From Selenomonadaceae bacterium (GTDB lineage: Bacteria > Bacillota > Negativicutes > Selenomonadales > Selenomonadaceae), in the NCBI GenBank assembly GCA_017476005.1, contig JAFVEM010000046.1, forward strand, positions 16,000-79,999: a stretch of 64,000 bases of DNA, read 5' to 3'. Below the pieces are notes generated by a model. The model did not search any database and had not been told where the DNA came from. It saw only the letters and a list, made by a program, of their open reading frames with translations. Position numbers and translations under genes: made by a program. Positions within the stretch are counted from its first letter, which is position 1. Each line of letters begins with the position of its first letter. Positions 1-13,283 of the stretch are shown here, in pieces.

Positions 1-650
1 ATGTTGACATCATGTTCATAGACGTCACTTCTCAAATCATGACTGAGATTGTTCAGCGGACGTTGATTCTGGTAATAAGTCATATCGCCGTTTTTATCTA
101 AATGTTGGCTACTATAGCCGGTCTCGTGTTTATCTTTCGGCAAAAACCGCTCACGGGCAAAGCCAAGTAAATCCCAAGAATACATACTGTAAACAAAACG
201 TATTTTTTTCCAAAGGTCTAACTCCTGAAAATATTCCGGTTTATACCCTAAAATATAGGCGGTATATTCATTGCCAAAACTGCCATCCTTATAGAAAACC
301 GGCTCCAGTGGCAACAAAACAATATCTCCAGCTTTTATGTTGTCGCGGTATATTTTAAATTCTTGTCGTCCTAATGTGCCGTGGGTACCCATATTAACTA
401 CCGGTATATTGAGTGTCCGTTCCATCCGGGCGGCATCGATGCCAAACAGGGCGCTGGAAGCGGTAATTATGTTTAGTTTCGGGCGATTTACGGTGCCTGC
501 ATAGTGCTTCTTTATCTCTACCCATTCCGCCAAATAGCGCTCTCGTTCATTAGGTACGCCCCATGCTGTTGCAAATAGCAACGGATGCACGATGACAAAT
601 ACAGCCAGACAACTTAATAGGCAAGTCGCTAAAAATGATTTCTGCGTCAC
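1..650 (-). CDS. DltD-like / SGNH-type membrane-anchored accessory protein (first ~216 codons; 3' end lies beyond the window start)
   Basis: Absent from the ORF track because its stop is outside the window. My reverse-strand translation from GTG (650-648) reads VTQKSFLATCLLSCLAVFVIVHPLLF (TM anchor) ...PKLNIITASSALFGIDAARMERTLNIPVVNMGTHG... and stays open to position 1. It starts 12 nt after the MBOAT stop. Its position and the Ser-containing block resemble DltD/AlgJ-type partners of MBOATs. Confidence 0.45.
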   Translation of the reverse strand, partial: MTQKSFLATCLLSCLAVFVIVHPLLFATAWGVPNERERYLAEWVEIKKHYAGTVNRPKLNIITASSALFGIDAARMERTLNIPVVNMGTHGTLGRQEFKIYRDNIKAGDIVLLPLEPVFYKDGSFGNEYTAYILGYKPEYFQELDLWKKIRFVYSMYSWDLLGFARERFLPKDKHETGYSSQHLDKNGDMTYYQNQRPLNNLSHDLRSDVYEHDVN

Positions 651-662
651 ATTGCCAGCTCC

Positions 663-2126
663 TCAAAATTGAAAATAAATGAACTCGGTATCCTTATCTC
701 TTATGAGCATTATTATTATCGCTAAAATGATGCCAACAGCCCAAGCAATCTTTCGATTTAAGGCTAGTTTTTTTATAATCTCGTTTGAGCTGGGAACAAA
801 TGCTACCAGTAAAATAGCCGACATAAAAGCCAGTTTGGGAAAGTCACTATAAATATGTGGATTTGATTCGAGAGAGAATGCAAGATGGTTATTCAGGAAG
901 TCGGCCACCTTGGGATGCCACAAGAAACCGTTTGCTCCCGTCATGGCCGTGAGCATATTTAGGGCATCACCGATACTTTTCGCCCGGAAAAACACATCGC
1001 CGATTAAAACAGTTAATAGGGTTAAAGCATAGCCCAGCGGACGCCACATCCAAAAATGAAATTTTTTCCAAACGTGATTTACCACCAGTCCCATCCCGTG
1101 TATAGCGCCGAATACCACAAATGTCCACCCTGCTCCGTGCCAAATTCCGGCGATGAACATAGCACTAAAAGTGGCTAACATTGCTTTGGGAAAGGTGATT
1201 TTTTTGCAGTTCATTACCATGGGGGTATAGAGGTAATTGGTGATAGTGGTGGTTAGCGACATGTGGAACCGACTCCAGAAATCAATGATGCCGTAAGCGC
1301 GGTAAGGAGAATTGAAATTTATCGGAATCTTGATATTCATCATACGCGCCAGCCCCACGGCCATATCGCTGTAACCTGAGAAGTCAAAGAAGAGTTGCGT
1401 CATATAACAGAGCGCAGTTAGCCAAGCGTCAAAAAAGGTAAGCGTGCTGGTATCGTTGTCATAACCTATGCCAACATATTTTACAAAACTATCGGCGATA
1501 ATAACTTTTTTGGCCAAGCCAATAACGAAAAGCACGAACCCTCGCGCCATATTTTCCCAATCAACCCACCGGAGTTTTTCATCGGCAAACTGTTTCATCA
1601 TGGACTTGTGATAGAGTATGGGGCCGGCCAAAAGATGGGGGAAGAAGGAAACAAATAGGGCGTAATCAATAAGGTTGCGCTCCTTGGCCACTTCCTCGTA
1701 GCAATCCACCAAGAAAACCATTTGGGTAATGGTGAAAAAGCTGATGCCCAATGGCAAGATGATGTGGAGCAGGGGCAAATTCGCCCCCAGCAAATCCAAA
1801 TTCTCAATGAAAAAATCCGTGTACTTGTAGAAGCCTAACAGTCCGGCATTAAACACAATCCCCAGCCAAAAGGCTTTTTGGGCGGCGCCTTTCATTTTGG
1901 CCTTGCGATAACGCAGTATGTAGCCGCTGATGAGGTAATTCAGGCCGATACTCGCAAGGAGCAAAGGGAGATATTTCACGTTCCAATAGGAATAGAAGAA
2001 AAGACTGGCCAGCACCAGCCAAACATTGGCCAGTCGGCTTTTTCCTTTCATACCGCCGAAGAAAAAATATCCCCCCAGAACGATGGGCAAGAAGAGAAAC
2101 AAAAACTCATAGGAATTAAAAAGCAC
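663..2126 (-). CDS. MBOAT-family membrane-bound O-acyltransferase (DltB/AlgI-like)
   Basis: 487-aa polytopic ORF. The N-terminus MLFNSYEFLFLFLPIV and the IWHGAGW histidine block are typical of DltB/AlgI. A 3-nt gap separates it from the upstream carrier-protein gene. Confidence 0.9.
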   Translation of the reverse strand: MLFNSYEFLFLFLPIVLGGYFFFGGMKGKSRLANVWLVLASLFFYSYWNVKYLPLLLASIGLNYLISGYILRYRKAKMKGAAQKAFWLGIVFNAGLLGFYKYTDFFIENLDLLGANLPLLHIILPLGISFFTITQMVFLVDCYEEVAKERNLIDYALFVSFFPHLLAGPILYHKSMMKQFADEKLRWVDWENMARGFVLFVIGLAKKVIIADSFVKYVGIGYDNDTSTLTFFDAWLTALCYMTQLFFDFSGYSDMAVGLARMMNIKIPINFNSPYRAYGIIDFWSRFHMSLTTTITNYLYTPMVMNCKKITFPKAMLATFSAMFIAGIWHGAGWTFVVFGAIHGMGLVVNHVWKKFHFWMWRPLGYALTLLTVLIGDVFFRAKSIGDALNMLTAMTGANGFLWHPKVADFLNNHLAFSLESNPHIYSDFPKLAFMSAILLVAFVPSSNEIIKKLALNRKIAWAVGIILAIIIMLIRDKDTEFIYFQF

Positions 2127-2129
2127 GAA

Positions 2130-2408
2130 TCAGTCCTCCTCCAATTTCTCCGCGATGAGGTCAATCATCTCCCCCACGTTCTTCAGTTCTTGGAGCTCGC
2201 CGAAGGCAAACTTAATGTCGAAATGCTTTTCGATGGCCACCACCAAGCGAATATGAGAGAGGGAATCCCAGTCCTCGATTTCCTCGGCGTTGGTCGCGTT
2301 CGTCACCACAATGCTTTCGTCGTCGAAAATATCGTGGAAAATGGGTTGCAGGTCGGCGAGAATGTTGTCTTTGGTCATGTGAAACAACTCCTTAAAATTT
2401 GTTGACAT
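2130..2408 (-). CDS. small acyl/peptidyl carrier protein (DltC-like)
   Basis: 92 aa, acidic, with the DWDSLSHIRLV phosphopantetheinyl-serine motif. Sits immediately upstream of the MBOAT gene. Confidence 0.85.
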   Translation of the reverse strand: MSTNFKELFHMTKDNILADLQPIFHDIFDDESIVVTNATNAEEIEDWDSLSHIRLVVAIEKHFDIKFAFGELQELKNVGEMIDLIAEKLEED

Positions 2409-2452
2409 ATGGTCTTATGTGAGATATACTTGACGCAACTTACTATTTGCTA

Positions 2453-2469
2453 AATTGCACTGTGCAAAT
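2453..2469. promoter_or_regulatory. inverted repeat AATTGCAC-T-GTGCAAAT in the divergent carrier-protein/antitoxin intergenic region (candidate antitoxin operator)
   Basis: Read directly from the sequence: 7 of 8 positions are complementary across one central base, about 35 nt upstream of the antitoxin start codon. Confidence 0.3.
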
Positions 2470-2501
2470 ATGTATGTATTTGATTTAGGGGTGATGACAG
2501 A

Positions 2502-2777
2502 ATGAACTTTTATCCCGTTGACGAATGGGCAACCATGTCAGAGGATGTCATGTCGGATTTAAGCGATGGCCAAGAGGTAATTCTCACCGAAAAAGGCCGC
2601 CCCAAGGTGCTGATGCTCAGTATTCCCCAAGGTGGGTTTGATGAAACCGTGCGAGCAGTGCGCTCAGCCAAGGCCATGTTGGCGCTGGAGAGTATGCGTC
2701 GCAGAGCCGCCAAAGACGGCTTTATGTCCGATGAGGAGATAAACACTCTCATAGACGAGGCAAGGGCGGCAGTATGA
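2502..2777 (+). CDS. type II antitoxin (small protein partnered with the PIN toxin)
   Basis: 91 aa. Its stop overlaps the PIN gene start as ATGA. The size and genetic arrangement are typical of type II toxin-antitoxin pairs; the family assignment is uncertain. Confidence 0.55.
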   Translation: MNFYPVDEWATMSEDVMSDLSDGQEVILTEKGRPKVLMLSIPQGGFDETVRAVRSAKAMLALESMRRRAAKDGFMSDEEINTLIDEARAAV

Positions 2778-3166
2778 ATGTGGTCTTGGATACGAATATT
2801 TTGGTGTCGGCTGCGCTTTCACCGGGACGCAATGCCAGCAATATTCTTGCTGGCGTTGTCCAAGGGAGGTTCACCGCCTGTTATGATTCGCGTATACTGG
2901 AAGAGTATGAACGTGTGTTGCACTATCCCAAGTTCAAACTTACTTCATGGGAAATTTATTATGTTCTATCTCCTGTTATGGAGGGTGGCATGCGTATTAT
3001 GGCGCGTCCGCTACCTGATGTTTCCTTTGACAGAGACGAAACCGACCGCAAATTCTACGAAGTGGCTAGGACGTGCCACGGCATTTTGATAACGGGCAAC
3101 CTCGCCCATTACCCTAGCGAACCATTCATCATGTCGCCCGGCGATTTTTACCGTCGTTATTTGTGA
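2774..3166 (+). CDS. PIN-domain toxin (TIGR00305-like putative TA toxin)
   Basis: 130 aa. The N-terminus NVVLDTNILVSAALSPGRNASNIL carries the first PIN acidic residue, and RILEEYERVLHYPKF is typical of this PIN subfamily. 4-nt overlap with the antitoxin gene. Confidence 0.8.
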   Translation: MNVVLDTNILVSAALSPGRNASNILAGVVQGRFTACYDSRILEEYERVLHYPKFKLTSWEIYYVLSPVMEGGMRIMARPLPDVSFDRDETDRKFYEVARTCHGILITGNLAHYPSEPFIMSPGDFYRRYL

Positions 3167-3192
3167 GTCCCCATCTGGGGGCTTTTTCTTTT
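3167..3192 (+). terminator. short hairpin plus T-run after the PIN gene
   Basis: GTCCCC-atct-GGGGGC followed by TTTTTCTTTT. It lies between the convergent PIN and VOC stops. Confidence 0.4.
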
Positions 3193-3195
3193 CCC

Positions 3196-3612
3196 TCAAA
3201 CATCTCTCTTCTCGTTACGTGGATATTGCTCAACCAGTTCTATCATGCCTATGGCCTGATGATAAAAAAAGGCTACTTGCCTGTTGTCAATAGCCACAGC
3301 CGGTTGAGGTGGCTGAATCATTGCCCAGCCTCTTTGCTGCAGTTTATCTACGTCGGCGGCAAAATCATCGGCAAGGTAACAGAGGTGATAGGGGGCATCG
3401 CCTATCCTTTTTTGCAGGGCGCGAAAATTCTTGGCTTCCTTACGCGGCGCTACAAGCTCTACCACCGTGCCATCGTTCTCTAGAAAAACAATATCCACTT
3501 GGCGAGCGTCATCATAGCGACTGGACTTAACCACCGTGAAACCAAGCTGACGTAAGGAATCCATCGCCGAGGCTATATCGTGTACCAAATACCCTATATG
3601 ATGAATTTTCAT
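3196..3612 (-). CDS. VOC-family protein (glyoxalase / methylmalonyl-CoA-epimerase-like fold)
   Basis: 138 aa. MKIHHIGYLVHDI...VVELVAP...YHLCYL...MIELVE gives the paired beta-alpha-beta-beta-beta metal-ligand pattern. It starts 16 nt downstream of the FkbH-like gene with an AAGGAGG SD. Confidence 0.8.
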   Translation of the reverse strand: MKIHHIGYLVHDIASAMDSLRQLGFTVVKSSRYDDARQVDIVFLENDGTVVELVAPRKEAKNFRALQKRIGDAPYHLCYLADDFAADVDKLQQRGWAMIQPPQPAVAIDNRQVAFFYHQAIGMIELVEQYPRNEKRDV

Positions 3613-3628
3613 AAAATCGCCTCCTTTT

Positions 3629-5479
3629 TTATTTTGCCCCCGACACCGCGATATACCTGCCGCGCCTCTCGTAGTCTGCCAGCGGTAGTTCCCAAGTGGC
3701 TCCCCCTTCTGCTTCGCTTAGTTTTGTGAACCCAAACTCGCCGTAGAGATTCGCTACCATTGGGTTTTTCTTGGTGGGATAATAATAGCCCACGAGTTTA
3801 TGGCAACCGCGCTCCATAGCCGCGGCGGCCAAAGCGTCCAACATGGCCTGCTCCATGCCTCGCTTTAAGACGCGACAACTCATCAGCCACAAAATTATGT
3901 GTACCTCATCGCCTTTAATTTCGCCGATAACCACGGACACTAAGCCGTTGTCGCCGAATTTATCCGTTAAGCGACCGTAGAGAGTGAGGTAACGCGAATC
4001 GGCGGCCATGTTCTCAATGTCGGCGCGAGTGTAGCGACGGGTGGTGAGGTTGAATTGGTTGCTTTTATTGGTAAGCTGGGCGATGCGGTCGAAGTAGATG
4101 GGACGAAAGGCGTCGATTTCCGCTTGCATCGCTAAAGATTTCAGAAAATCGTCATAGCTACCCATGGCGGAGGCCATTTTTTGCCGGGCGGCGTTGGCGC
4201 GATAAGTGTCGGCGCGTTTTTGGTCGTCGGCGGAAATGCTTACCGGCTCGAAATATCCGGCTCCTTCGATGGCGCGAATATAGGAGAAAACGTCGGTGGG
4301 ATTAACCTCCGGCACCGCTACCTCCGGCATGGTGTCCCGGATAAGCTGTCTTTCCGCCGGGTTGTCGTCGATGAACACCAAGCTGTCTGTGCCGATATTC
4401 AGCTCGGCGGCAATGGCGGCAAGGCTCAAATTTTTCGGCTCCCAGTTAGCGTGGAAAGTGGCGAAATCAGCTAGGTCGAGTACGCTGTCAGGGTGAGAGA
4501 AACCGCCTCTCGCCACTGCTTCATCATTCTTGGAGGCCACGGCGAGAATGACGCCCCGTTTTTTTAGGGCGAGAACGTATTCTTGAAAGGCGGTGTAGGC
4601 TTCGGCGGTGGGCGTTTCCCGGCCGATTTTGATACCTTCCATGCCGTCGTCGCCGATAACGCCGCCCCAGAGGGTGTTGTCTAAGTCCAACACCAAGCAT
4701 TTTTTGTTCTTACCCAAAATCCCCCTGATGATTTTGGCGAGGCTCAAGGCCACCTCTGGCATCACGTCGTAATTCATGGGGAATTTGTAGGCGTAATATT
4801 GGAAGGGATTGTGATAGCGGTCAAGGCCAATCTTGGCGGCTAGGGAATTAAGGTCGTGGAGATAAAACCCGGGGGCGGCGTAGGCGGCAAATTTTTCGTT
4901 TAAACCGGCGATAAATCGCGCTAACCCGTAAGGCTCCCTCGCTTCCAGACTGCCCAGGGGCAAAGCCGCCGGCAGGTCGAAATTGTTCTGGATAATGACG
5001 GCGTGGTAACGGGCGAAAAGTTTCTCCCACGCCTCTTGATAACGAGCGAACTCCGCCGAAAGTTTCCCCCTGACGATTTCGGGACTGTCCCCCGGCTCCG
5101 GCAAATGACTGAGGTTATGATGGCCGGTGAAGATAACGATGATTTCCGGGCGAAACTCAGCCAAAGTGGGATTCTCAAAGACAGCGTCCTCATACCATTT
5201 GTTGTATTCGGACTGATAAAAACTGGGCTTTATGCCGGAGGCCAAGAGAAAAATTTCCAAGAGGTTCTTAATATCGTCGGTGGTGGCGCCTCCCAAAATG
5301 GCGATACGCTTCTCGACGTATTCCACGCCTTCTCGTGCCAATAGTTCTCGCCGAAGGCTCTTTTGTTTTCGCAAAATTAGTTCATTGTCATAGGGATAAG
5401 TAAATATTTTGTGCAGATCCAAGAGACATTCTCCTTTTAGGATATGGCCGCCTCTCCCCCGATGGGCGAGGCTTCCCAT
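3629..5479 (-). CDS. FkbH-like protein (HAD-IIIC phosphatase domain plus C-terminal acyltransferase-like domain)
   Basis: LVLDLDNTLWGGVIGDDG is the HAD-IIIC/FkbH motif I, and WLMSCRVLKRGME with a GNAT-like tail is the FkbH C-terminal block. The ATG at 5479 has no SD. An in-frame TTG at 5422 follows AAAGGAG by 8 nt and is the more likely start. Confidence 0.85.
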   Translation of the reverse strand: MGSLAHRGRGGHILKGECLLDLHKIFTYPYDNELILRKQKSLRRELLAREGVEYVEKRIAILGGATTDDIKNLLEIFLLASGIKPSFYQSEYNKWYEDAVFENPTLAEFRPEIIVIFTGHHNLSHLPEPGDSPEIVRGKLSAEFARYQEAWEKLFARYHAVIIQNNFDLPAALPLGSLEAREPYGLARFIAGLNEKFAAYAAPGFYLHDLNSLAAKIGLDRYHNPFQYYAYKFPMNYDVMPEVALSLAKIIRGILGKNKKCLVLDLDNTLWGGVIGDDGMEGIKIGRETPTAEAYTAFQEYVLALKKRGVILAVASKNDEAVARGGFSHPDSVLDLADFATFHANWEPKNLSLAAIAAELNIGTDSLVFIDDNPAERQLIRDTMPEVAVPEVNPTDVFSYIRAIEGAGYFEPVSISADDQKRADTYRANAARQKMASAMGSYDDFLKSLAMQAEIDAFRPIYFDRIAQLTNKSNQFNLTTRRYTRADIENMAADSRYLTLYGRLTDKFGDNGLVSVVIGEIKGDEVHIILWLMSCRVLKRGMEQAMLDALAAAAMERGCHKLVGYYYPTKKNPMVANLYGEFGFTKLSEAEGGATWELPLADYERRGRYIAVSGAK

Positions 5480-5654
5480 AAAACTAAGCGGTAAAACGCT
5501 CTTTAGTATAGCACGCTCGCCCCCCCCTGCAAGACATTTATGGGCAAAAATACTGTCAAAGAAAATCGTATTTCGTATTGATTGATAGGAAATTCCGTAG
5601 TAATATAGCTAGTGGAAAATTTCCTTGCGGACAAACGTTGCACTGAGGGGTGCC

Positions 5655-6254
5655 ATGACCAAATTTTTATTTGACCTAGACGGAACCATCACTCGGCAGG
5701 AAACTCTGCCGCTGATAGCCGAGCATTTTCATGTCAGGCATAAAATTGACCGACTGACGGCGGACACAGTGGCCGGTAACGTACCTTTTGTAGAGTCCTT
5801 TATCAGGCGCGTGCAAATTCTGGGGACGTTGCCGGTAAGCGAGGTGGATGCTCTCCTAGCTAAGGTGGAACTTTACCCGTTGCTATTGGCGTTCATTCAA
5901 GCGCACCCCCGAGCGGCCTGTGTAGTGACCGGTAACCTCTTCTGCTGGATAGAGAGTTTAATGCGTCGCATAGGTTGCCCCGGTTTCGCTTCACAGGCGC
6001 AGGTGGAAAATGACCGAGTCGCAAAGCTCCTTTCCATCGTAAACAAAGAAGCGGTGGTCAGGGAAATGCAAGCGGCAGGTCACTATGTGGTCTTTGTGGG
6101 AGATGGTAATAACGATGTAGCAGCCATGCATCTGGCCAATGTGGCCATAGCCTCCGGGCTTACCCACCCTCCTGCCGACGGAGTCCTGGCGGTAGCCGAT
6201 TACTTGGCGCTAGACGAGTCAGACCTGTGCATACAGCTGAATAAGTTTTTATAG
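5655..6254 (+). CDS. HAD-IB family hydrolase (phosphoserine-phosphatase-like)
   Basis: MTKFLFDLDGTIT (DxDxT motif) and GDGNNDVAAM (motif IV). I prefer ATG 5655 after GAGGGG over the TTG at 5625 in the track. 33 nt upstream of glpA. Confidence 0.75.
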   Translation: MTKFLFDLDGTITRQETLPLIAEHFHVRHKIDRLTADTVAGNVPFVESFIRRVQILGTLPVSEVDALLAKVELYPLLLAFIQAHPRAACVVTGNLFCWIESLMRRIGCPGFASQAQVENDRVAKLLSIVNKEAVVREMQAAGHYVVFVGDGNNDVAAMHLANVAIASGLTHPPADGVLAVADYLALDESDLCIQLNKFL

Positions 6255-6287
6255 ATATTGTGAGATTTTAGGAGAGGAAGAGCAAAG

Positions 6288-7895
6288 ATGAGAAAAGCGA
6301 GGGTTGTGGTCATCGGAGGTGGAGCAACCGGCGTGGGGATTTTGCGCGATCTTTCCATGCGAGGCGTGGATGCCTTGCTGGTGGAAAAATGCGATTTGGT
6401 GAACGGCGCCAGCTCCCGTTATCACGGACTACTCCATAGCGGCGGTCGCTACGCGGTGAAAGACCAAGAGGCCGCCAAGGAATGTATCATTGAAAATCAA
6501 ATCCTGCGGAAAATCGGCAAGTCCTGCGTGGAACCTACCGGCGGTATGTTCGTTCGCCTTGACATCGATGACCCCGAATATGAAACCGCGTGGGTGAAAG
6601 GTTGCGCCGACAGCGGCATCGAGGCCAAACAGATTTCCCTTGACGAGGCTTTCGCCATGGAGCCGTTGCTCTCTCGTCATGCGGTGTCGGCTTATCTCGT
6701 GCCGGATGCGGCCATCGACGGTTTCCGGATGTCTTGGCAAAACGTGGAGTCGGCCAAACGCTACGGCGGTCGCTGTCTGACTTATCGCGAAGCCGTGGGG
6801 GTACTCACGGAAAACGGCAAAGTCACGGGCGTGACCTTACGCAACAACATCACCGGCGACGAAGAAACCGTGGAGTGTGAGATGCTGGTGAACGCCGCCG
6901 GTGGTTGGGCGGGCAAAGTCGCGAAACTGGCCGGGCTTGACGTGGGGGTGCAGCCCGACAAAGGAACCCTCCTTGCTTTTAATCAGCGGCTCACCAGTCA
7001 TGTGGTGAATCGTCTCCACAAATCTTCCGACGGGGATATTTTCGTCCCCCACGGCTCCATTACCATCCTCGGCACCTCCTCCATGAGCATACCCGACCCG
7101 GAGGACACTTCCACCTCCCGGGAAGAGGTGGAGAACCTCCTAGCCATCGGCGAAAAAACCTTTGAGCATCTGCGCGACTGCCGGATGCTGCGCTCTTTCG
7201 CCGGTTCTCGCCCCCTCTACATACCTCCCGGCGGCGAAGTCGGCCGCAGCGCTTCCCGGGGATTTGCCATCGTTGACCATAAAAACGACGGACTTGACGG
7301 CATGATGACCATTGTGGGCGGCAAGTTCACCACCTATCGCCTCATGGCGGAAAAAATTGTGGATCAAATCTGTGCCAAATTTAAGGTAACTACCCCCTGC
7401 CGTACCGCCGAAGAACCTTTGGTGCCGGAGGTGGCGCCGGAAAAGAAACAGGCGGCGCGACAATACTTCCCGGCTTACGGCACGGATTTAGCGGCGACGC
7501 GCCTCGGCCCCGAGCGTTTTGACAAAGTGGTGGAACGCCTCGAAAAAGACCCGGAATCTCGCGAACTCGTCTGCGAGTGTGAAAACGTCACTTTGGCCGA
7601 AGTGGAAGAAATGGCCGCAGAGTTTTCCAGTTTCCAAATCAACGACATTCGCCGCCGCACCCGTATAGGCATGGGTACCTGCCAAGGCAACTTCTGCGCC
7701 CTCAGGAGCGCCGGAGTTTTTGCCAAATACGGCAAGACTCCCGGCGCCAAAGATACTTTGGGACGCATGAAGGAATTTTTGCAGGGACGCTGGAAGGGGA
7801 TTCGTCCTGTTTTGGTGGGACGGACTTTGCGCGAAACGGAAATGACGCGCGCCCTCTATGAACTTTCTTTCCATGTCAACGGAGGTGAAGCATAA
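6288..7895 (+). CDS. glpA: anaerobic glycerol-3-phosphate dehydrogenase subunit A
   Basis: FAD fold VVVIGGGATGVGILRDL, SSRYHGLLHSGGRY, and a C-terminal BFD-like Cys cluster (CECENV...GMGTCQGNFC). Confidence 0.9.
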   Translation: MRKARVVVIGGGATGVGILRDLSMRGVDALLVEKCDLVNGASSRYHGLLHSGGRYAVKDQEAAKECIIENQILRKIGKSCVEPTGGMFVRLDIDDPEYETAWVKGCADSGIEAKQISLDEAFAMEPLLSRHAVSAYLVPDAAIDGFRMSWQNVESAKRYGGRCLTYREAVGVLTENGKVTGVTLRNNITGDEETVECEMLVNAAGGWAGKVAKLAGLDVGVQPDKGTLLAFNQRLTSHVVNRLHKSSDGDIFVPHGSITILGTSSMSIPDPEDTSTSREEVENLLAIGEKTFEHLRDCRMLRSFAGSRPLYIPPGGEVGRSASRGFAIVDHKNDGLDGMMTIVGGKFTTYRLMAEKIVDQICAKFKVTTPCRTAEEPLVPEVAPEKKQAARQYFPAYGTDLAATRLGPERFDKVVERLEKDPESRELVCECENVTLAEVEEMAAEFSSFQINDIRRRTRIGMGTCQGNFCALRSAGVFAKYGKTPGAKDTLGRMKEFLQGRWKGIRPVLVGRTLRETEMTRALYELSFHVNGGEA

Positions 7896-9142
7896 TGGCC
7901 AAAACCGATACCATCGTTATTGGCAGTGGCCTCGCCGGTCTCACGGCGGCCATTGTCAGCGCCCAAAAGGGGCAAAATGTCAAGCTGCTCACCTACGGTT
8001 CCGGTACGCTTTCGCTGAACAGCGGCGTAATTGACGTACTGGGTTACGATCAGCAGCATAAATATGTGGCCTCCCCCCGTCAGGGCATCCAAAATCTCCC
8101 GGATAATCACCCCTACCGGAAAATCGGCCTACAGGCCATCGCGGACAGCGTCTCTTTCTTCCTGAAGCTAACTGAAGAACAGGGCTTTCCATACGGTGGG
8201 GATTTGGACAGTCAATTGCCGGTTCCCACCGCCGTGGGGACGTTGAAGCCCACTTGCTTGGCGCCGGAATCCTTAAACGGTTCCCATTTGGTCGATAGTC
8301 ACAAAATAGTTATCGTTACCGTTAAGGGCTTGAAAGATTTTTACGGCAACATCATCGAGGATAATCTGCGGAAGGTGGCCGCCCTCAAGGATAAAACCTA
8401 CGAGCTTATCGAATTTGACAGCGGTCTTACCGGCGGTCGGGACATTACCACTTTGGATGTTGCGCGTTACTTAGATACAGACGCAGGACTGGCGGCGCTT
8501 GTCGCTTTGCTCAAACCTGTGGCGCAAAACGGCGTTTCCTTCGTTTTGCCGCAGATTTTGGGTACTAAGGGGGACACTTGCCATAAGAGCCTCAAAGCCC
8601 AACTCGGCTCGGCGCAAGTCGTCGAAACCACTTGTCTGCCGCCGTCGGTGAACGGTTTGCGCCTCCAAAATCTCCTCAAAGGAGCTTTTAAGCAATTGGG
8701 GGGAGAAATCGTGGAGGACTGCCGAGTGTTGCGCGGCATTATGGAAGGCGCCAAATGCGTCGGCGTGGTGACCCAGGCGGCCGCCAGAAAGAAGAGCTAT
8801 TACGCGACCAAATTCATCTTGGCCACCGGCGGTTTCTATAGCGGCGGTCTCGCCATGCGCGAATTTGAAAAGCCGCAGGAAACTATCTTTGGTTTTCCCG
8901 TATATTTCGTGCCGGGAGAGGAGAATTGGAGCAATGCGGAGCTTTTCAGCGACAAGCCCCAAGGTTTTGCCCTCACCGGCATTATGACGGACGAAAACCT
9001 GCGCCCCGTGGACGGGAGCGGCCAAGTGGTGGCCGATAACGTGTATATCGTGGGACGCAACTTAGGCGGCTACGATTTCTGTTTTGAGCATTCCGGCAAC
9101 GGCGTGGCTTTGGCTTCGGCTTACAAGGCCGGCAATATGTGA
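7895..9142 (+). CDS. glpB: anaerobic glycerol-3-phosphate dehydrogenase subunit B
   Basis: TIVIGSGLAGLTAA...LSLNSGVIDVLGY. Its start codon abuts the glpA stop. Confidence 0.85.
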   Translation: MAKTDTIVIGSGLAGLTAAIVSAQKGQNVKLLTYGSGTLSLNSGVIDVLGYDQQHKYVASPRQGIQNLPDNHPYRKIGLQAIADSVSFFLKLTEEQGFPYGGDLDSQLPVPTAVGTLKPTCLAPESLNGSHLVDSHKIVIVTVKGLKDFYGNIIEDNLRKVAALKDKTYELIEFDSGLTGGRDITTLDVARYLDTDAGLAALVALLKPVAQNGVSFVLPQILGTKGDTCHKSLKAQLGSAQVVETTCLPPSVNGLRLQNLLKGAFKQLGGEIVEDCRVLRGIMEGAKCVGVVTQAAARKKSYYATKFILATGGFYSGGLAMREFEKPQETIFGFPVYFVPGEENWSNAELFSDKPQGFALTGIMTDENLRPVDGSGQVVADNVYIVGRNLGGYDFCFEHSGNGVALASAYKAGNM

Positions 9143-9156
9143 GGGGGGAGTAGGAA

Positions 9157-10386
9157 ATGAGCGATACCAAAATAAAACAGATTGCCCCGGAGGAGGCGGC
9201 TGTATTCACCGCCGACCATTGCCTCTCCTGCACCTCCTGTATGTCCAGTTGCCCGGTGATGGAAGCCACCAAAGAATATCGTGGGCCGAAACTCGTCGGC
9301 CCTGCCCATAGCCGCATGCATTTTTCGCAGGAAGATGAGGAAGATAGCCTCGACTTTTGTTCCAACTGCAAGAGTTGCGACCGCGCTTGTCCTTCGGGGG
9401 TGGCGGTTTCTACTCTCAATATGCTCCAACGTGGGGAGTACTACAAAACCCATGCCCATTCTCAGCGCGACGAGATGCTCGCTCACGGGGAAAAAATGGG
9501 CAAGCTGGTACACTCGCTTCCCTTGGGGGCTACCTGCGCCAATATCGGCATGAGAATCGGCAAGGCTTTGGGTATCTTTGGCCTTTTTGGCTTGGCGGTA
9601 GAAAGGGATATGCCTAGCTACGCCGCCAGTACCTTCAAAAGCCTGTATAAAAATATTTCCCAGAAAAAATCCGACAAAAAAGTGGTTTTCTTCCCCGGCT
9701 GTTTCATCAACGACAACGAGCCGTCGGTGGGCGAAGCCATGGTGAAGGTCATGCAGGTCAACGGCTATGAAGTCCTCCTCGACGATAAATTCTGCTGTTG
9801 CGGTTCTCCCATGGTGGTGACGGGCTATATTGACGAAGCCAAGGAACACGCCGACCGAAACGTGGAGCGCATTCTCTATTGGAAAAATCAAGGCGTCCCC
9901 GTGGTGGCGGCTTGCACCAGTTGCTCTTTGATGCTCAAAAAGGAGTACGAAGAACTCTTTAACGAGGCCAAGATGAAACAGGCCGCCGCCAATGTCTATG
10001 ATCTCTTTGAATTTCTCGATATTCTCGCCGATAAGGGCGAACTGAATACCAATTTCCAGAGCGTGTCCGCAAAACTCACCTATCATGTGCCTTGTCACCT
10101 GAAGGCGCAAGGCTTCGGCGTACCGGCGGCGAGCATTTTGCGCGACGTCCCCGGTGTCACCGTAGAGCTGGCGGATGCCGGTTGTTGCGGTATGTCGGGC
10201 AACTACGGTTTCAAGGGCGATAAATACGATATTTCCATGAAAATTGGGGAGAAACTCTTCTCCAGGATAAAAGAACAGGCCGCAGACTCGGTAATTTGCG
10301 ATTGCGGCACCTGTAGGTTACAGATTCGACACGGGACGCAGGCTAAGGCTTGTCACCCCGTTGAGATATTGGCCAAGGCTTACTGA
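9157..10386 (+). CDS. glpC: anaerobic glycerol-3-phosphate dehydrogenase subunit C (Fe-S / CCG-domain)
   Basis: Two ferredoxin-type clusters (CLSCTSCMSSCPV, CSNCKSCDRACPSG) plus Cys-rich CCG repeats. Confidence 0.85.
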   Translation: MSDTKIKQIAPEEAAVFTADHCLSCTSCMSSCPVMEATKEYRGPKLVGPAHSRMHFSQEDEEDSLDFCSNCKSCDRACPSGVAVSTLNMLQRGEYYKTHAHSQRDEMLAHGEKMGKLVHSLPLGATCANIGMRIGKALGIFGLFGLAVERDMPSYAASTFKSLYKNISQKKSDKKVVFFPGCFINDNEPSVGEAMVKVMQVNGYEVLLDDKFCCCGSPMVVTGYIDEAKEHADRNVERILYWKNQGVPVVAACTSCSLMLKKEYEELFNEAKMKQAAANVYDLFEFLDILADKGELNTNFQSVSAKLTYHVPCHLKAQGFGVPAASILRDVPGVTVELADAGCCGMSGNYGFKGDKYDISMKIGEKLFSRIKEQAADSVICDCGTCRLQIRHGTQAKACHPVEILAKAY

Positions 10387-10400
10387 GAGCTTGGTTTAAG

Positions 10401-10543
10401 TTTTTTTGGGGTTTCACCCCAAACCCCAGCAGGGAAATAATTTCCCTGCACCCTTAATAAATTTATTACGGGGTGCAGGGACGCAAGTCCCTGCCGGAGT
10501 CAAGAGGTAGCGCCTCTTGTGGGGTATGGGGCAGCGCCCCATG
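10401..10543. repeat. full-length stacked-hairpin intergenic repeat (copy A, five hairpin modules around an AT-rich palindromic core)
   Basis: GGGGTttcACCCC / GCAGGGAAAtaaTTTCCCTGC / core TTAATAAATTTATTA / GCAGGGAcgcaagTCCCTGC / CAAGAGGtagcgCCTCTTG / ATGGGGCagcGCCCCAT. Related copies lie at 25083, 29861 and 47428. Confidence 0.85.
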
Positions 10544-10559
10544 TGTAGGAAAGGAGTAA

Positions 10560-12065
<1,506 letters not shown>

Positions 12066-12070
12066 GTAAA

Positions 12071-12129
12071 AAACTTGAGGCTCCGCCTCAAACTCCGCCT
12101 AAGGGCATAGCCCTTAGGAATCCCGGTTG
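12071..12129. repeat. type-2 hairpin repeat (TTGAGGCtccGCCTCAA + CCTAAGGGCataGCCCTTAGG + AATCCCGGTTG)
   Basis: The 34-nt segment 12096-12129 recurs perfectly at 13024-13057. Confidence 0.8.
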
Positions 12130-12182
12130 ATTTTAGGTATTGCTAACACGTTTGGTTTATGCTAACATACCTAGATTGAGTT

Positions 12183-12203
12183 TTTGGGGGATTTTCCCCC
12201 AAA
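12183..12203. repeat. single TTTGGGGGattttCCCCCAAA hairpin module
   Basis: Same module type as the terminal hairpin of the large repeats. 49 nt upstream of the glpF start. Confidence 0.6.
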
Positions 12204-12251
12204 GGCTCCTCCGCATTAATTCTTTATTTTTTAGAAAGAAGGCTGAAAAAC

Positions 12252-12992
12252 ATGGTAACGGGTTCTGAGAACTTGTTGGGTGAGTTTTTGGGCACGTTGG
12301 TACTGGTAGTCTTTGGTTGCGGCGTCTGCGCCAACCTGACCCTGACGAAATCCAAGGGTGTCGGCGGCGGTTGGATTTGCATCGCTTTCGGGTGGGGGTT
12401 TGCCGTCACCATGGGCGTATTTACCGCTACGACCTTGGGCGCGCCGCAAGGTGACCTCAATCCGGCGGTGACTTTGGCTAAGACCATGGCCGGCATCTAT
12501 ACCTTCGGTCAATTCATCGCTACCTCCATCGCGCAACTCGTGGGCGCCATCGTTGGCGCAGCCATCGTTTGGCTCTGCTATCTGCCTCACTGGGCTGAAA
12601 CCAAGGATCAAGCGGCCAAACTCGGCATTTTTGCCACGGCTCCGGCCATTCGCAACGGCGCGGCCAACTTCCTCACCGAGGTTATCGCCACTTTCTTCCT
12701 GATGTTCGTCATTTGGATGATTTTCTCCGCTCCCGTTGGCGGTTTGGTTCCCGGCTATGGGCCTTACATCGTGGGTATGCTCATTGTGGCTTTGGGTCTT
12801 TCTTTGGGCGGCCCCACCGGTTACGCCATGAATCCCGCGCGTGACCTTGGCCCGCGTATCGCTCATGCCATCCTGCCTATCGCCGGTAAAGGCGGCTCCG
12901 ATTGGGGTTACGCTTGGGTGCCTGTCCTCGGCCCCTTGTGCGGCGCGCTCCTCGCTTACCTTGTAGCCACTGCCGTGGGTTTCCCTTTCTGA
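12252..12992 (+). CDS. glpF: glycerol uptake facilitator (MIP/aquaglyceroporin)
   Basis: Two NPA boxes (DLNPAVTLA and MNPARDLGPR); 246 aa with six TM segments. Confidence 0.9.
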   Translation: MVTGSENLLGEFLGTLVLVVFGCGVCANLTLTKSKGVGGGWICIAFGWGFAVTMGVFTATTLGAPQGDLNPAVTLAKTMAGIYTFGQFIATSIAQLVGAIVGAAIVWLCYLPHWAETKDQAAKLGIFATAPAIRNGAANFLTEVIATFFLMFVIWMIFSAPVGGLVPGYGPYIVGMLIVALGLSLGGPTGYAMNPARDLGPRIAHAILPIAGKGGSDWGYAWVPVLGPLCGALLAYLVATAVGFPF

Positions 12993-12999
12993 GTATAAA

Positions 13000-13057
13000 A
13001 CCGTGAGGCGCTGCCTTGCGCTTCGCCTAAGGGCATAGCCCTTAGGAATCCCGGTTG
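13000..13057. repeat. type-2 hairpin repeat, second copy
   Basis: 13024-13057 is identical to 12096-12129. Confidence 0.8.
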
Positions 13058-13061
13058 GGAT

Positions 13062-13106
13062 GCCAAACAGGCTCTGCCATTTAGCGGCAGAGCCTGTTTG
13101 GCGTTT
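13062..13106 (+). terminator. 17-bp perfect hairpin after glpF
   Basis: GCCAAACAGGCTCTGCC-atttagc-GGCAGAGCCTGTTTGGC followed by GTTTG. The U-tract is weak. Confidence 0.6.
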
Positions 13107-13283
13107 GAGAAAGGGAGGGGGAACCGCGAAGCGGTGGGAGGGTTCCGGCAAACTTCACTTATTCAAAGTAACCGGTTGTGAAAATAGTCTAGGTGTTGTC
13201 GAGACAAATATGCTCTTGGATGGCTTAGGAGAGACTTTATTGTTGGGTGACTTTTGAATGAAACTGGCTCTCAGCTTTAGCCA

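Follow-up and report, generated by a model that had tools for sequence, protein, structure and literature searches.

MBOAT-SGNH pairs are general bacterial machinery for acylating surface polymers, and to our knowledge only two kinds of donor have been found for them so far: D-alanyl-DltC and, in the remaining characterised systems, acetyl-CoA. Here we describe a locus at the start of a 64,000-nucleotide stretch of DNA from a Selenomonadaceae bacterium (GenBank assembly GCA_017476005.1, contig JAFVEM010000046.1, positions 16,000 to 79,999 of the forward strand; hereafter the window), in which an MBOAT acyltransferase and a membrane-anchored SGNH-fold protein stand together with an acyl carrier protein (ACP), a VOC protein and an FkbH-domain enzyme. 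In PatA-type MBOATs the Tyr of a C-terminal FXYXXF segment, the 'acyl shuttle', takes up an acyl group, which it then gives to the SGNH partner (PMC12148441, Anderson et al., 2025). DltB does not have this segment, which is supplied by the microprotein DltX, and the MBOAT/SGNH pathways other than Dlt are stated to work without a carrier protein, since acyl-CoA is their donor (PMC12148441). Every characterised FkbH enzyme handles 1,3-bisphosphoglycerate, and an FkbH enzyme with a standalone ACP is the hallmark of methoxymalonyl-ACP and tetronate pathways (PMC7489565). The FkbH domain of a nonribosomal peptide synthetase (NRPS) loads glycerate onto a carrier (PMC10143770).

The five genes of the locus are on the minus strand (window 1-5479), in the transcription order FkbH enzyme, VOC, ACP, MBOAT and membrane-anchored SGNH-fold open reading frame (ORF). 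Their sequences make it fairly probable that they encode a carrier-protein-dependent MBOAT-SGNH pathway that O-acylates an extracytoplasmic glycan, for which we infer the chemistry, the acyl group and the target polymer alike. What the data show is the identity of the domains, the conservation of catalytic residues, the order of the genes and the return of this architecture in several phyla. For the fuller proposal we see an even balance of belief and doubt: the FkbH loader would take a three-carbon (C3) unit from 1,3-bisphosphoglycerate, and this pathway would place esters of a glyceryl group, or of lactyl or another C3 hydroxyacyl group where a VOC protein or a dehydratase and reductase take part, on extracytoplasmic polysaccharides, as a widespread uncharacterised class. 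Acylation by an FkbH/ACP-fed MBOAT-SGNH pair is apparently widespread and undescribed, and would put onto cell-surface sugars a group that is neither acetate nor D-alanine. The literature searched, which left many subscription papers outside its coverage, gave no paper linking FkbH to an MBOAT-SGNH pair, to O-antigen or to capsule. It also gave no Dlt-type pathway with an FkbH loader, in agreement with a first-pass annotation of this DNA made from the sequence alone.

In the proposed mechanism, the FkbH enzyme would dephosphorylate 1,3-bisphosphoglycerate and attach the glyceryl unit to the phosphopantetheine arm of the 82-aa ACP. The VOC protein would modify the glyceryl thioester, most likely by C2 epimerisation, by analogy with methylmalonyl-CoA epimerase. 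His330 of the MBOAT would then shift the acyl group off the ACP and onto Tyr484 in the enzyme's own FIYFQF shuttle at the outer membrane face, and the SGNH partner would take it on Ser65 and hand it on to a hydroxyl group on a surface polysaccharide. The ACP abutting the MBOAT, together with the FkbH loader, implies that the donor is a C3 hydroxyacyl group bound to a carrier protein. The target class is likely a Wzx-type polysaccharide, O-antigen or capsule, and not teichoic acid, because the cassette of the relative Selenomonas sp. CM52 sits among glycan genes.

The FkbH frame stays open up to 5479, and the database gene call (P0001, 100% identical) has 597 aa and starts at 5422. The protein matched the FkbH-domain model TIGR01686 with 293.1 bits (cutoff 146.65), the HAD-IIIC model TIGR01681 with 66.6 bits (cutoff 35.75) and FkbH_N (PF21211), so the profile search agrees with the FkbH-like assignment of the first-pass annotation. 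The conserved C-terminal Cys of FkbH enzymes has a catalytic role. Here it is Cys516 of the MSCRV block (codon 3875-3877), and the DxDxT motif reads DLDNT (residues 246-250; D246 codon 4685-4687). The blocks DLDNTLWGG and MSCRVL were invariant in an alignment of six FkbH sequences (A2) reaching down to 38% identity, and the nearest solved structure was B. fragilis BF1531 (3slr, E 6.5e-53). The enzyme thus resembles the FkbH/OzmB-type synthases, such as Mad7/Mad14 with the ACPs Mad8/Mad12, and AerB, in TIGR01686, DxDxT, Cys and standalone ACP (PMC7489565; PMC10143770). It differs from them in its setting, as no polyketide synthase (PKS)/NRPS or methoxymalonyl/tetronate genes were present and the consumers at this and related loci are MBOAT, GNAT and WcbI proteins.

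The longest ACP frame starts at 2408 and gives 92 aa, the length reported at first. An ATG at 2378 behind an AAGGAG ribosome-binding site gives 82 aa and is probably the true start, in agreement with the database call of 82 aa; the carrier-protein identity and the DSL site therefore stand and the length probably does not. Codon 2262-2264 encodes the Ser of the DSL motif, the phosphopantetheine site. Housekeeping ACP models gave sub-threshold matches only, and the NCBIfam profile scan gave no match to the DltC model. Between the ACP stop and the MBOAT start there are 3 nt, as in CM52, and this adjacency was repeated in many metagenomic FkbH loci.

The MBOAT scored 156.1 bits against the DltB equivalog TIGR04091, below the cutoff of 375. 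It aligned to Streptococcus thermophilus DltB (6bug, E 5.8e-25), with its putative catalytic WHG His330 (codon 1137-1139) on DltB His336. The last six residues, FIYFQF (666-683), fit FXYXXF, with Tyr484 at codon 675-677, and the same C-terminal motif was kept in nearly all full-length MBOATs of related loci. This ending argues that the MBOAT is of PatA/AlgI-type architecture with a fused shuttle, not DltB-type. From the earlier description as a DltB/AlgI-type MBOAT, the family, the WHG His and the AlgI type were kept, and the DltB type was given up for its sub-cutoff TIGR04091 score and the FIYFQF end.

The SGNH partner leaves the window, and its full length of 316 aa (P0121) was read on the contig extended by 10 kb leftwards past the window start, via a 175,954-bp Selenomonadaceae metagenome scaffold (L001) carrying an identical FkbH. 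Exact-sequence look-ups with the MBOAT and the 92-aa ACP ORF gave no match; the 597-aa FkbH call did match. Searches of Pfam, NCBIfam and PDB sequences with the partner gave no match, and a word-indexed search found only the protein itself, with no close relative. Exhaustive HMMER searching gave a family of 2316 cluster representatives, mostly ~320 aa. In an alignment of 100 members (A1), Ser65 (in a GSN block), Asn86, Asp109, Gly188 and His295 were invariant and Asp291 nearly so. The codons of Ser65, Asn86 and Asp109 are inside the window, and those of Asp291 and His295 are beyond it. The Asp-His spacing is DxxxH, compared with the canonical DxxH, and the Ser/His/Asp set was assigned by conservation. 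The profile of the 100-member family matched no PDB sequence, DltD included, and in Pfam it gave just two weak GDSL matches.

AlphaFold2 gave an unusable model from the single partner sequence (predicted local distance difference test, pLDDT, 51). From the 100-sequence alignment it gave a model with pLDDT 94.9 and predicted template-modelling score (pTM) 0.91, in which residues 3-29 form an N-terminal helix. In the Foldseek search of the PDB with this model, nearly all of the top 50 matches listed were SGNH-fold esterases or acyltransferases, including TesA, acetyl-xylan esterases, PatB (8tlb, E 7.9e-4) and DltD (7dxm_B, E 9.3e-4, TM 0.42). The model points to an SGNH-fold protein of an unnamed family, which is the predicted extracytoplasmic transferase partner of the MBOAT. 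The first-pass annotation had called it a membrane-anchored DltD-like ORF; the SGNH fold and topology hold, and membership of the DltD family does not, as neither the protein nor its 100 relatives matched it in Pfam or NCBIfam.

Compared with Dlt, the locus shows the same core, a carrier-protein gene adjoining an MBOAT with the invariant His, followed by an extracytoplasmic SGNH-fold protein, and the carrier is presumed to be the acyl donor. It differs from Dlt in having an FkbH-domain enzyme as loader and no DltA. The gene and Pfam list of the 10 kb past the window start held no AMP-binding or DltA-like gene; on the opposite strand beyond the SGNH ORF were M48/TPR peptidase, AAA and DUF2201 genes. 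A PROSITE-type AMP-binding signature was absent from the window and was found in two of 104 related loci, both times distant and on the opposite strand. The extension, a step the first-pass annotation had proposed, and the signature scan thus rule out a DltA in the 10 kb beyond the window start and agree with its statement that no adenylating ligase is present at the locus. The window MBOAT has its own FXYXXF segment, so no DltX microprotein would be needed (PMC12148441). It falls below the DltB cutoff and its partner matches no DltD model, as shown above. The host is also a diderm Negativicute, and the relatives place the cassette in O-antigen-like loci.

The likeness to PatA/PatB, AlgI/AlgJ/AlgX and related MBOAT-SGNH O-acetyltransferases is an MBOAT of ~470-530 aa with the terminal FXYXXF Tyr, followed by a single-pass SGNH-fold partner; one partner in a related locus matched the ALGX domain. 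These systems use acetyl-CoA and are described as working without a carrier (PMC12148441), whereas here an ACP abuts the MBOAT and an FkbH enzyme is present. AT3-SGNH O-acyltransferases such as OatA are similar in that their membrane domain forms an acyl-Tyr intermediate, which is passed to an SGNH domain (PMC12148441), but they have an acyltransferase-3 instead of an MBOAT, fused to the SGNH domain, and use acetyl-CoA as donor.

The coordinates of all features are given in Table 1. The ORF list bore out the five minus-strand ORFs of the first-pass annotation in their order, and the four motifs quoted there (DLDNTLWGG, MSCRVLKRG, DSL and WHG) were all found. It had left out a plus-strand toxin-antitoxin pair sitting between the VOC and ACP genes. 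The window contained no Rfam families and no tRNA genes.

Table 1. Genes of the FkbH-ACP-MBOAT-SGNH locus and the inserted toxin-antitoxin pair, in window coordinates
Feature	Position	Strand	Remarks
FkbH-domain enzyme, predicted ACP loader	3629..5422	minus	HAD-IIIC phosphatase + C-terminal Cys acyl-transfer domain
VOC (glyoxalase/methylmalonyl-CoA-epimerase-like), 138 aa	3196-3612	minus	Glyoxalase_4, E 6.6e-18
PIN toxin	2774-3166	plus	PIN_3 E 1.1e-13; TIGR00305 41.7 bits (cutoff 29.15)
Phd/YefM-like antitoxin	2502-2777	plus	PhdYeFM weak, E 0.008
Dedicated ACP, 82 aa	2130..2378	minus	PP-binding E 5.7e-6, DSL site
MBOAT O-acyltransferase, PatA/AlgI-type, 487 aa	663-2126	minus	PF03062 E 1.3e-19, 71.1 bits (cutoff 27)
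SGNH-fold membrane-anchored protein, N-terminal 216 residues	3..650	minus	GTG start at 650, leaves window

Metagenome contigs were scanned with the FkbH alignment, which gave 80 full-length homologues (41-68% identity), and 78 loci entered the neighbour counts. An MBOAT was present in 31 of the 78 loci, in 20 of the 38 whose flanks both reach at least 3 kb and, after clustering at 90% identity, in 23 of 62 clusters. By a rough estimate that assumes one to three MBOAT genes per genome, this 37-53% compares with roughly 1% by chance. An ACP was detected in 39 of the 78 loci. The usual order in MBOAT-containing loci, which span 0.33-0.57 GC, was a contiguous FkbH-ACP-MBOAT. The co-occurrence count, which the first-pass annotation had put forward, was therefore well above chance, and the FkbH half was conserved together with the ACP-MBOAT half. 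Public annotations of these genes are generic ('HAD-IIIC family phosphatase', 'MBOAT family protein').

In FkbH-linked loci the MBOAT usually had a single-pass membrane protein of 320-500 aa beside it. Ten such flanking proteins were tested, nine from FkbH-linked loci and one from an FkbH-less locus (L007). One matched the ALGX SGNH domain, three gave weak GDSL/DUF1574 matches and the rest gave nothing significant or relevant; several carried GSS-type and DxxH motifs.

Selenomonas sp. CM52, whose FkbH is 68% identical, carries an SGNH-like candidate, FkbH, MaoC dehydratase, short-chain dehydrogenase/reductase (SDR), ACP and MBOAT, inside an O-antigen-like locus that also encodes glycosyltransferases, a Wzx-like flippase, DegT and GDP-sugar enzymes. 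All five components recurred on a Rhodobacteraceae plasmid and on S. meliloti megaplasmids. The plasmid of Rhodobacteraceae SC52 (L106 3552-6410) has the order ACP-FkbH-MBOAT-hypothetical-VOC-acyltransferase, adjoining sulfotransferase and epimerase genes, and the S. meliloti megaplasmids (40 records) have VOC-MBOAT-SGNH-like-ACP-FkbH.

The alternative that survives best is that the two halves are unrelated neighbours, in which the MBOAT-SGNH pair is a PatAB/AlgIJ-like O-acetyltransferase fed by acetyl-CoA and the FkbH-VOC-ACP half serves a cytoplasmic acyltransferase encoded at another locus, such as a GNAT N-acylating an amino sugar. We regard this as unlikely, but several observations fit it or otherwise weigh against a single carrier-fed pathway, and they are gathered here. 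PatA-type MBOATs with the same FXYXXF use acetyl-CoA (PMC12148441). Three close FkbH relatives (65-70% identity) had no MBOAT, and two of them had a GNAT instead. The first (L019 6376-11809) has DegT, an FdtA-like isomerase, FkbH, a VOC fragment, a 94-aa ACP-similar ORF, a methyltransferase and GNAT, which suggests that a 3-amino-3,6-dideoxy sugar is N-acylated in the cytoplasm with a (possibly O-methylated) glyceroyl group. The second has GNAT-FkbH-MaoC-SDR-ACP adjoining Wzz, and the third FkbH-(VOC fragment)-MaoC-SDR-ACP alone. On a Niveispirillum plasmid (L108 6785-11265), FkbH and ACP are followed by a WcbI polysaccharide acetyltransferase and an SDR.

In reference genomes, the nearest non-Selenomonadaceae MBOAT relatives (44% identity) had an SGNH-like neighbour and no ACP or FkbH within 10 kb, and a reverse scan from MBOAT relatives gave 13 loci, of which only a Polyangiales locus had MBOAT-FkbH-ACP. 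A neighbour-joining tree scattered FkbH-linked MBOATs among unlinked ones with no single clade. As the tree separated no FkbH-linked group, phylogeny gave no evidence of donor specialisation of the MBOAT. The plus-strand toxin-antitoxin pair parts FkbH-VOC from ACP-MBOAT, so co-transcription of the two halves is uncertain. The extended contig of this genome held no glycan biosynthesis genes adjoining the locus. Two steps of the chemistry also lean on analogy, as the C2 epimerisation by the VOC protein is a guess and we infer that glycan-associated FkbH homologues load glycerate.

The ACP, however, lies on the MBOAT side of the split, directly upstream of the MBOAT, and this pairing is kept in CM52 and in many metagenomic loci. 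The excess of MBOAT at FkbH loci over the chance estimate and the occurrence of the same five genes together in Alphaproteobacteria also argue against unrelated neighbours. The GNAT and WcbI loci indicate that the coupling is modular and not obligatory. Judged from gene content, the conserved unit is FkbH with a dedicated ACP and optional tailoring, which would deliver to one among several glycan acyltransferases, of which the MBOAT-SGNH pair occurs most often.

A second alternative keeps the carrier-fed architecture and changes the acyl group: the FkbH enzyme would load something other than glycerate, or the VOC protein would turn glyceryl-ACP into a different C3 acyl group, such as pyruvoyl through beta-elimination, so that the ester would not be glyceryl. 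This too is unlikely, and it draws its strength from the tailoring genes. The VOC protein scored 44 bits against the methylmalonyl-CoA epimerase equivalog TIGR03081, far below the cutoff of 114.95; the earlier VOC/methylmalonyl-CoA-epimerase-like label keeps the superfamily, matched through Glyoxalase_4, and loses the epimerase equivalog. We predict that the VOC protein tailors the acyl group while it is bound to the ACP, as an optional enzyme of the pathway. A VOC gene was present in 18 of the 78 metagenomic FkbH loci and MaoC (with SDR) in 12, and no locus had both, so VOC and MaoC dehydratase with SDR are mutually exclusive alternative add-ons. This exclusion implies that the loaded unit is routinely remodelled.

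Dehydratase and ketoreductase action on glyceryl-ACP is a proposed route to the lactyl starter of some polyketide loading modules, for which our literature search gave no confirmation. By analogy, cassette variants with dehydratase and reductase would be expected to yield lactyl-ACP. On the other side, the commonest arrangement among MBOAT-containing FkbH loci was neither VOC nor MaoC (18 of 31), which suggests that the unmodified FkbH product is a competent donor, and the characterised FkbH enzymes all use 1,3-bisphosphoglycerate (PMC7489565).

Truncated VOC (Glyoxalase_4) remnants of 55-59 aa were seen directly 3' of FkbH in two relatives (L019 9800-9979 and L023 9773-9940), and one of the two now carries MaoC and SDR. 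This arrangement looks like the trace of one tailoring module replacing the other.

It is very unlikely that the cassette is decaying or silent, its ancestral operon broken by the toxin-antitoxin insertion and its genes no longer cooperating. The inserted genes are a type II toxin-antitoxin pair outside the pathway. They overlap by 4 nt and have a near-consensus promoter-like site at 2402-2430 (11/12 matches) directed away from the ACP gene, and a terminator-like hairpin with a T-run at 3165-3184. At the equivalent position in CM52 there is no such insertion, and 32 bp separate the SDR gene from the ACP gene. Besides the insertion and its strong outward promoter, the VOC remnants show that such cassettes erode, and GC content at third codon positions (GC3) is uneven: 0.64 for FkbH, 0.57 for ACP, 0.545 for MBOAT, 0.51 for PIN, 0.47 for VOC and 0.435 for the SGNH partner. 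All five ORFs, however, are full length with their catalytic residues kept, and the identical five-gene arrangement was present on two independently assembled records.

In relatives, the SGNH partner had no match above 38% identity, FkbH reached ~69%, and ACP and MBOAT had strong matches in CM52. The uneven GC3 and the uneven relatedness of the parts suggest piecewise exchange of cassette parts at this locus, with which the VOC remnants in relatives also fit.

A polyketide-type use of glyceryl-ACP, as methoxymalonyl-ACP extender or in tetronate formation, has the FkbH and standalone ACP hallmark (PMC7489565) in its favour and is extremely improbable, since the gene/Pfam list showed no PKS, no dehydrogenase pair with O-methyltransferase and no FabH-like gene (companion genes defined after PMC7489565) within 10 kb either side, in line with the first-pass statement that FkbG/I/K tailoring and PKS genes are missing, and the neighbours in relatives are glycan genes.

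If the proposed pathway is correct, it would be a third donor class for MBOAT-SGNH pairs and the first carrier-protein-fed MBOAT outside Dlt, and it would tie the decoration of the surface directly to glycolytic flux. Unrecognised glyceryl or lactyl esters would then be expected on O-antigens, capsules or exopolysaccharides of gut, oral, soil and symbiotic bacteria, and these would matter for phage receptors, for immune recognition and for the properties of the polymers. A Campylobacter jejuni flagellin-glycan locus presumably combines HAD-IIIC, ACPs, a methyltransferase and GNAT; our search did not confirm this and we do not use it as evidence. N-glyceroyl substituents occur on bacterial sugars, and their genetic basis was called unknown in 2017 (PMC5378307). 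The pathway, if true, could be the genetic basis for glycerate-type esters on bacterial glycans. The presence of the same five genes on the S. meliloti megaplasmids makes the idea directly testable in a genetic model.

Upstream of the cassette, a HAD-IB phosphatase-like gene is divergent from FkbH and is followed by glpABC-like anaerobic glycerol-3-phosphate dehydrogenase genes and a glycerol kinase (window 5625-13151). A MIP-family channel (glpF) completes the glpABC-glpK-glpF block on the extended contig. Glycerol catabolism supplies triose phosphates and hence 1,3-bisphosphoglycerate. The adjacency of this block to the cassette was absent in relatives and may be coincidence; the GC3 of the glp genes was 0.64-0.72.

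In S. meliloti Ak57, the gene between MBOAT and ACP is annotated 'TonB-dependent receptor' (L107 7938-9167). The equivalent ORF on pSymB of strain 1021 (L105 8290-10349) has GGST and DPGH motifs as in SGNH-type partners, and for this reason the annotation is probably wrong. The FkbH homologue of strain 1021 is split into two overlapping ORFs, which could be a frameshift. Sulfotransferase genes were near FkbH-ACP in both the Niveispirillum and the Rhodobacteraceae plasmids, which recalls the aeruginosin-type NRPS modules, where FkbH-loaded glycerate is methylated and sulfated (PMC10143770). A metagenome-assembled genome of Lachnospiraceae (L011 359-11404) has three MBOAT paralogues within 11 kb, two of them ending in FLYFxF, alternating with membrane-anchored ORFs whose lengths are ~160 and 380-480 aa; that stretch has no ACP or FkbH, and from its gene order it looks like an array of conventional MBOAT-partner modules.

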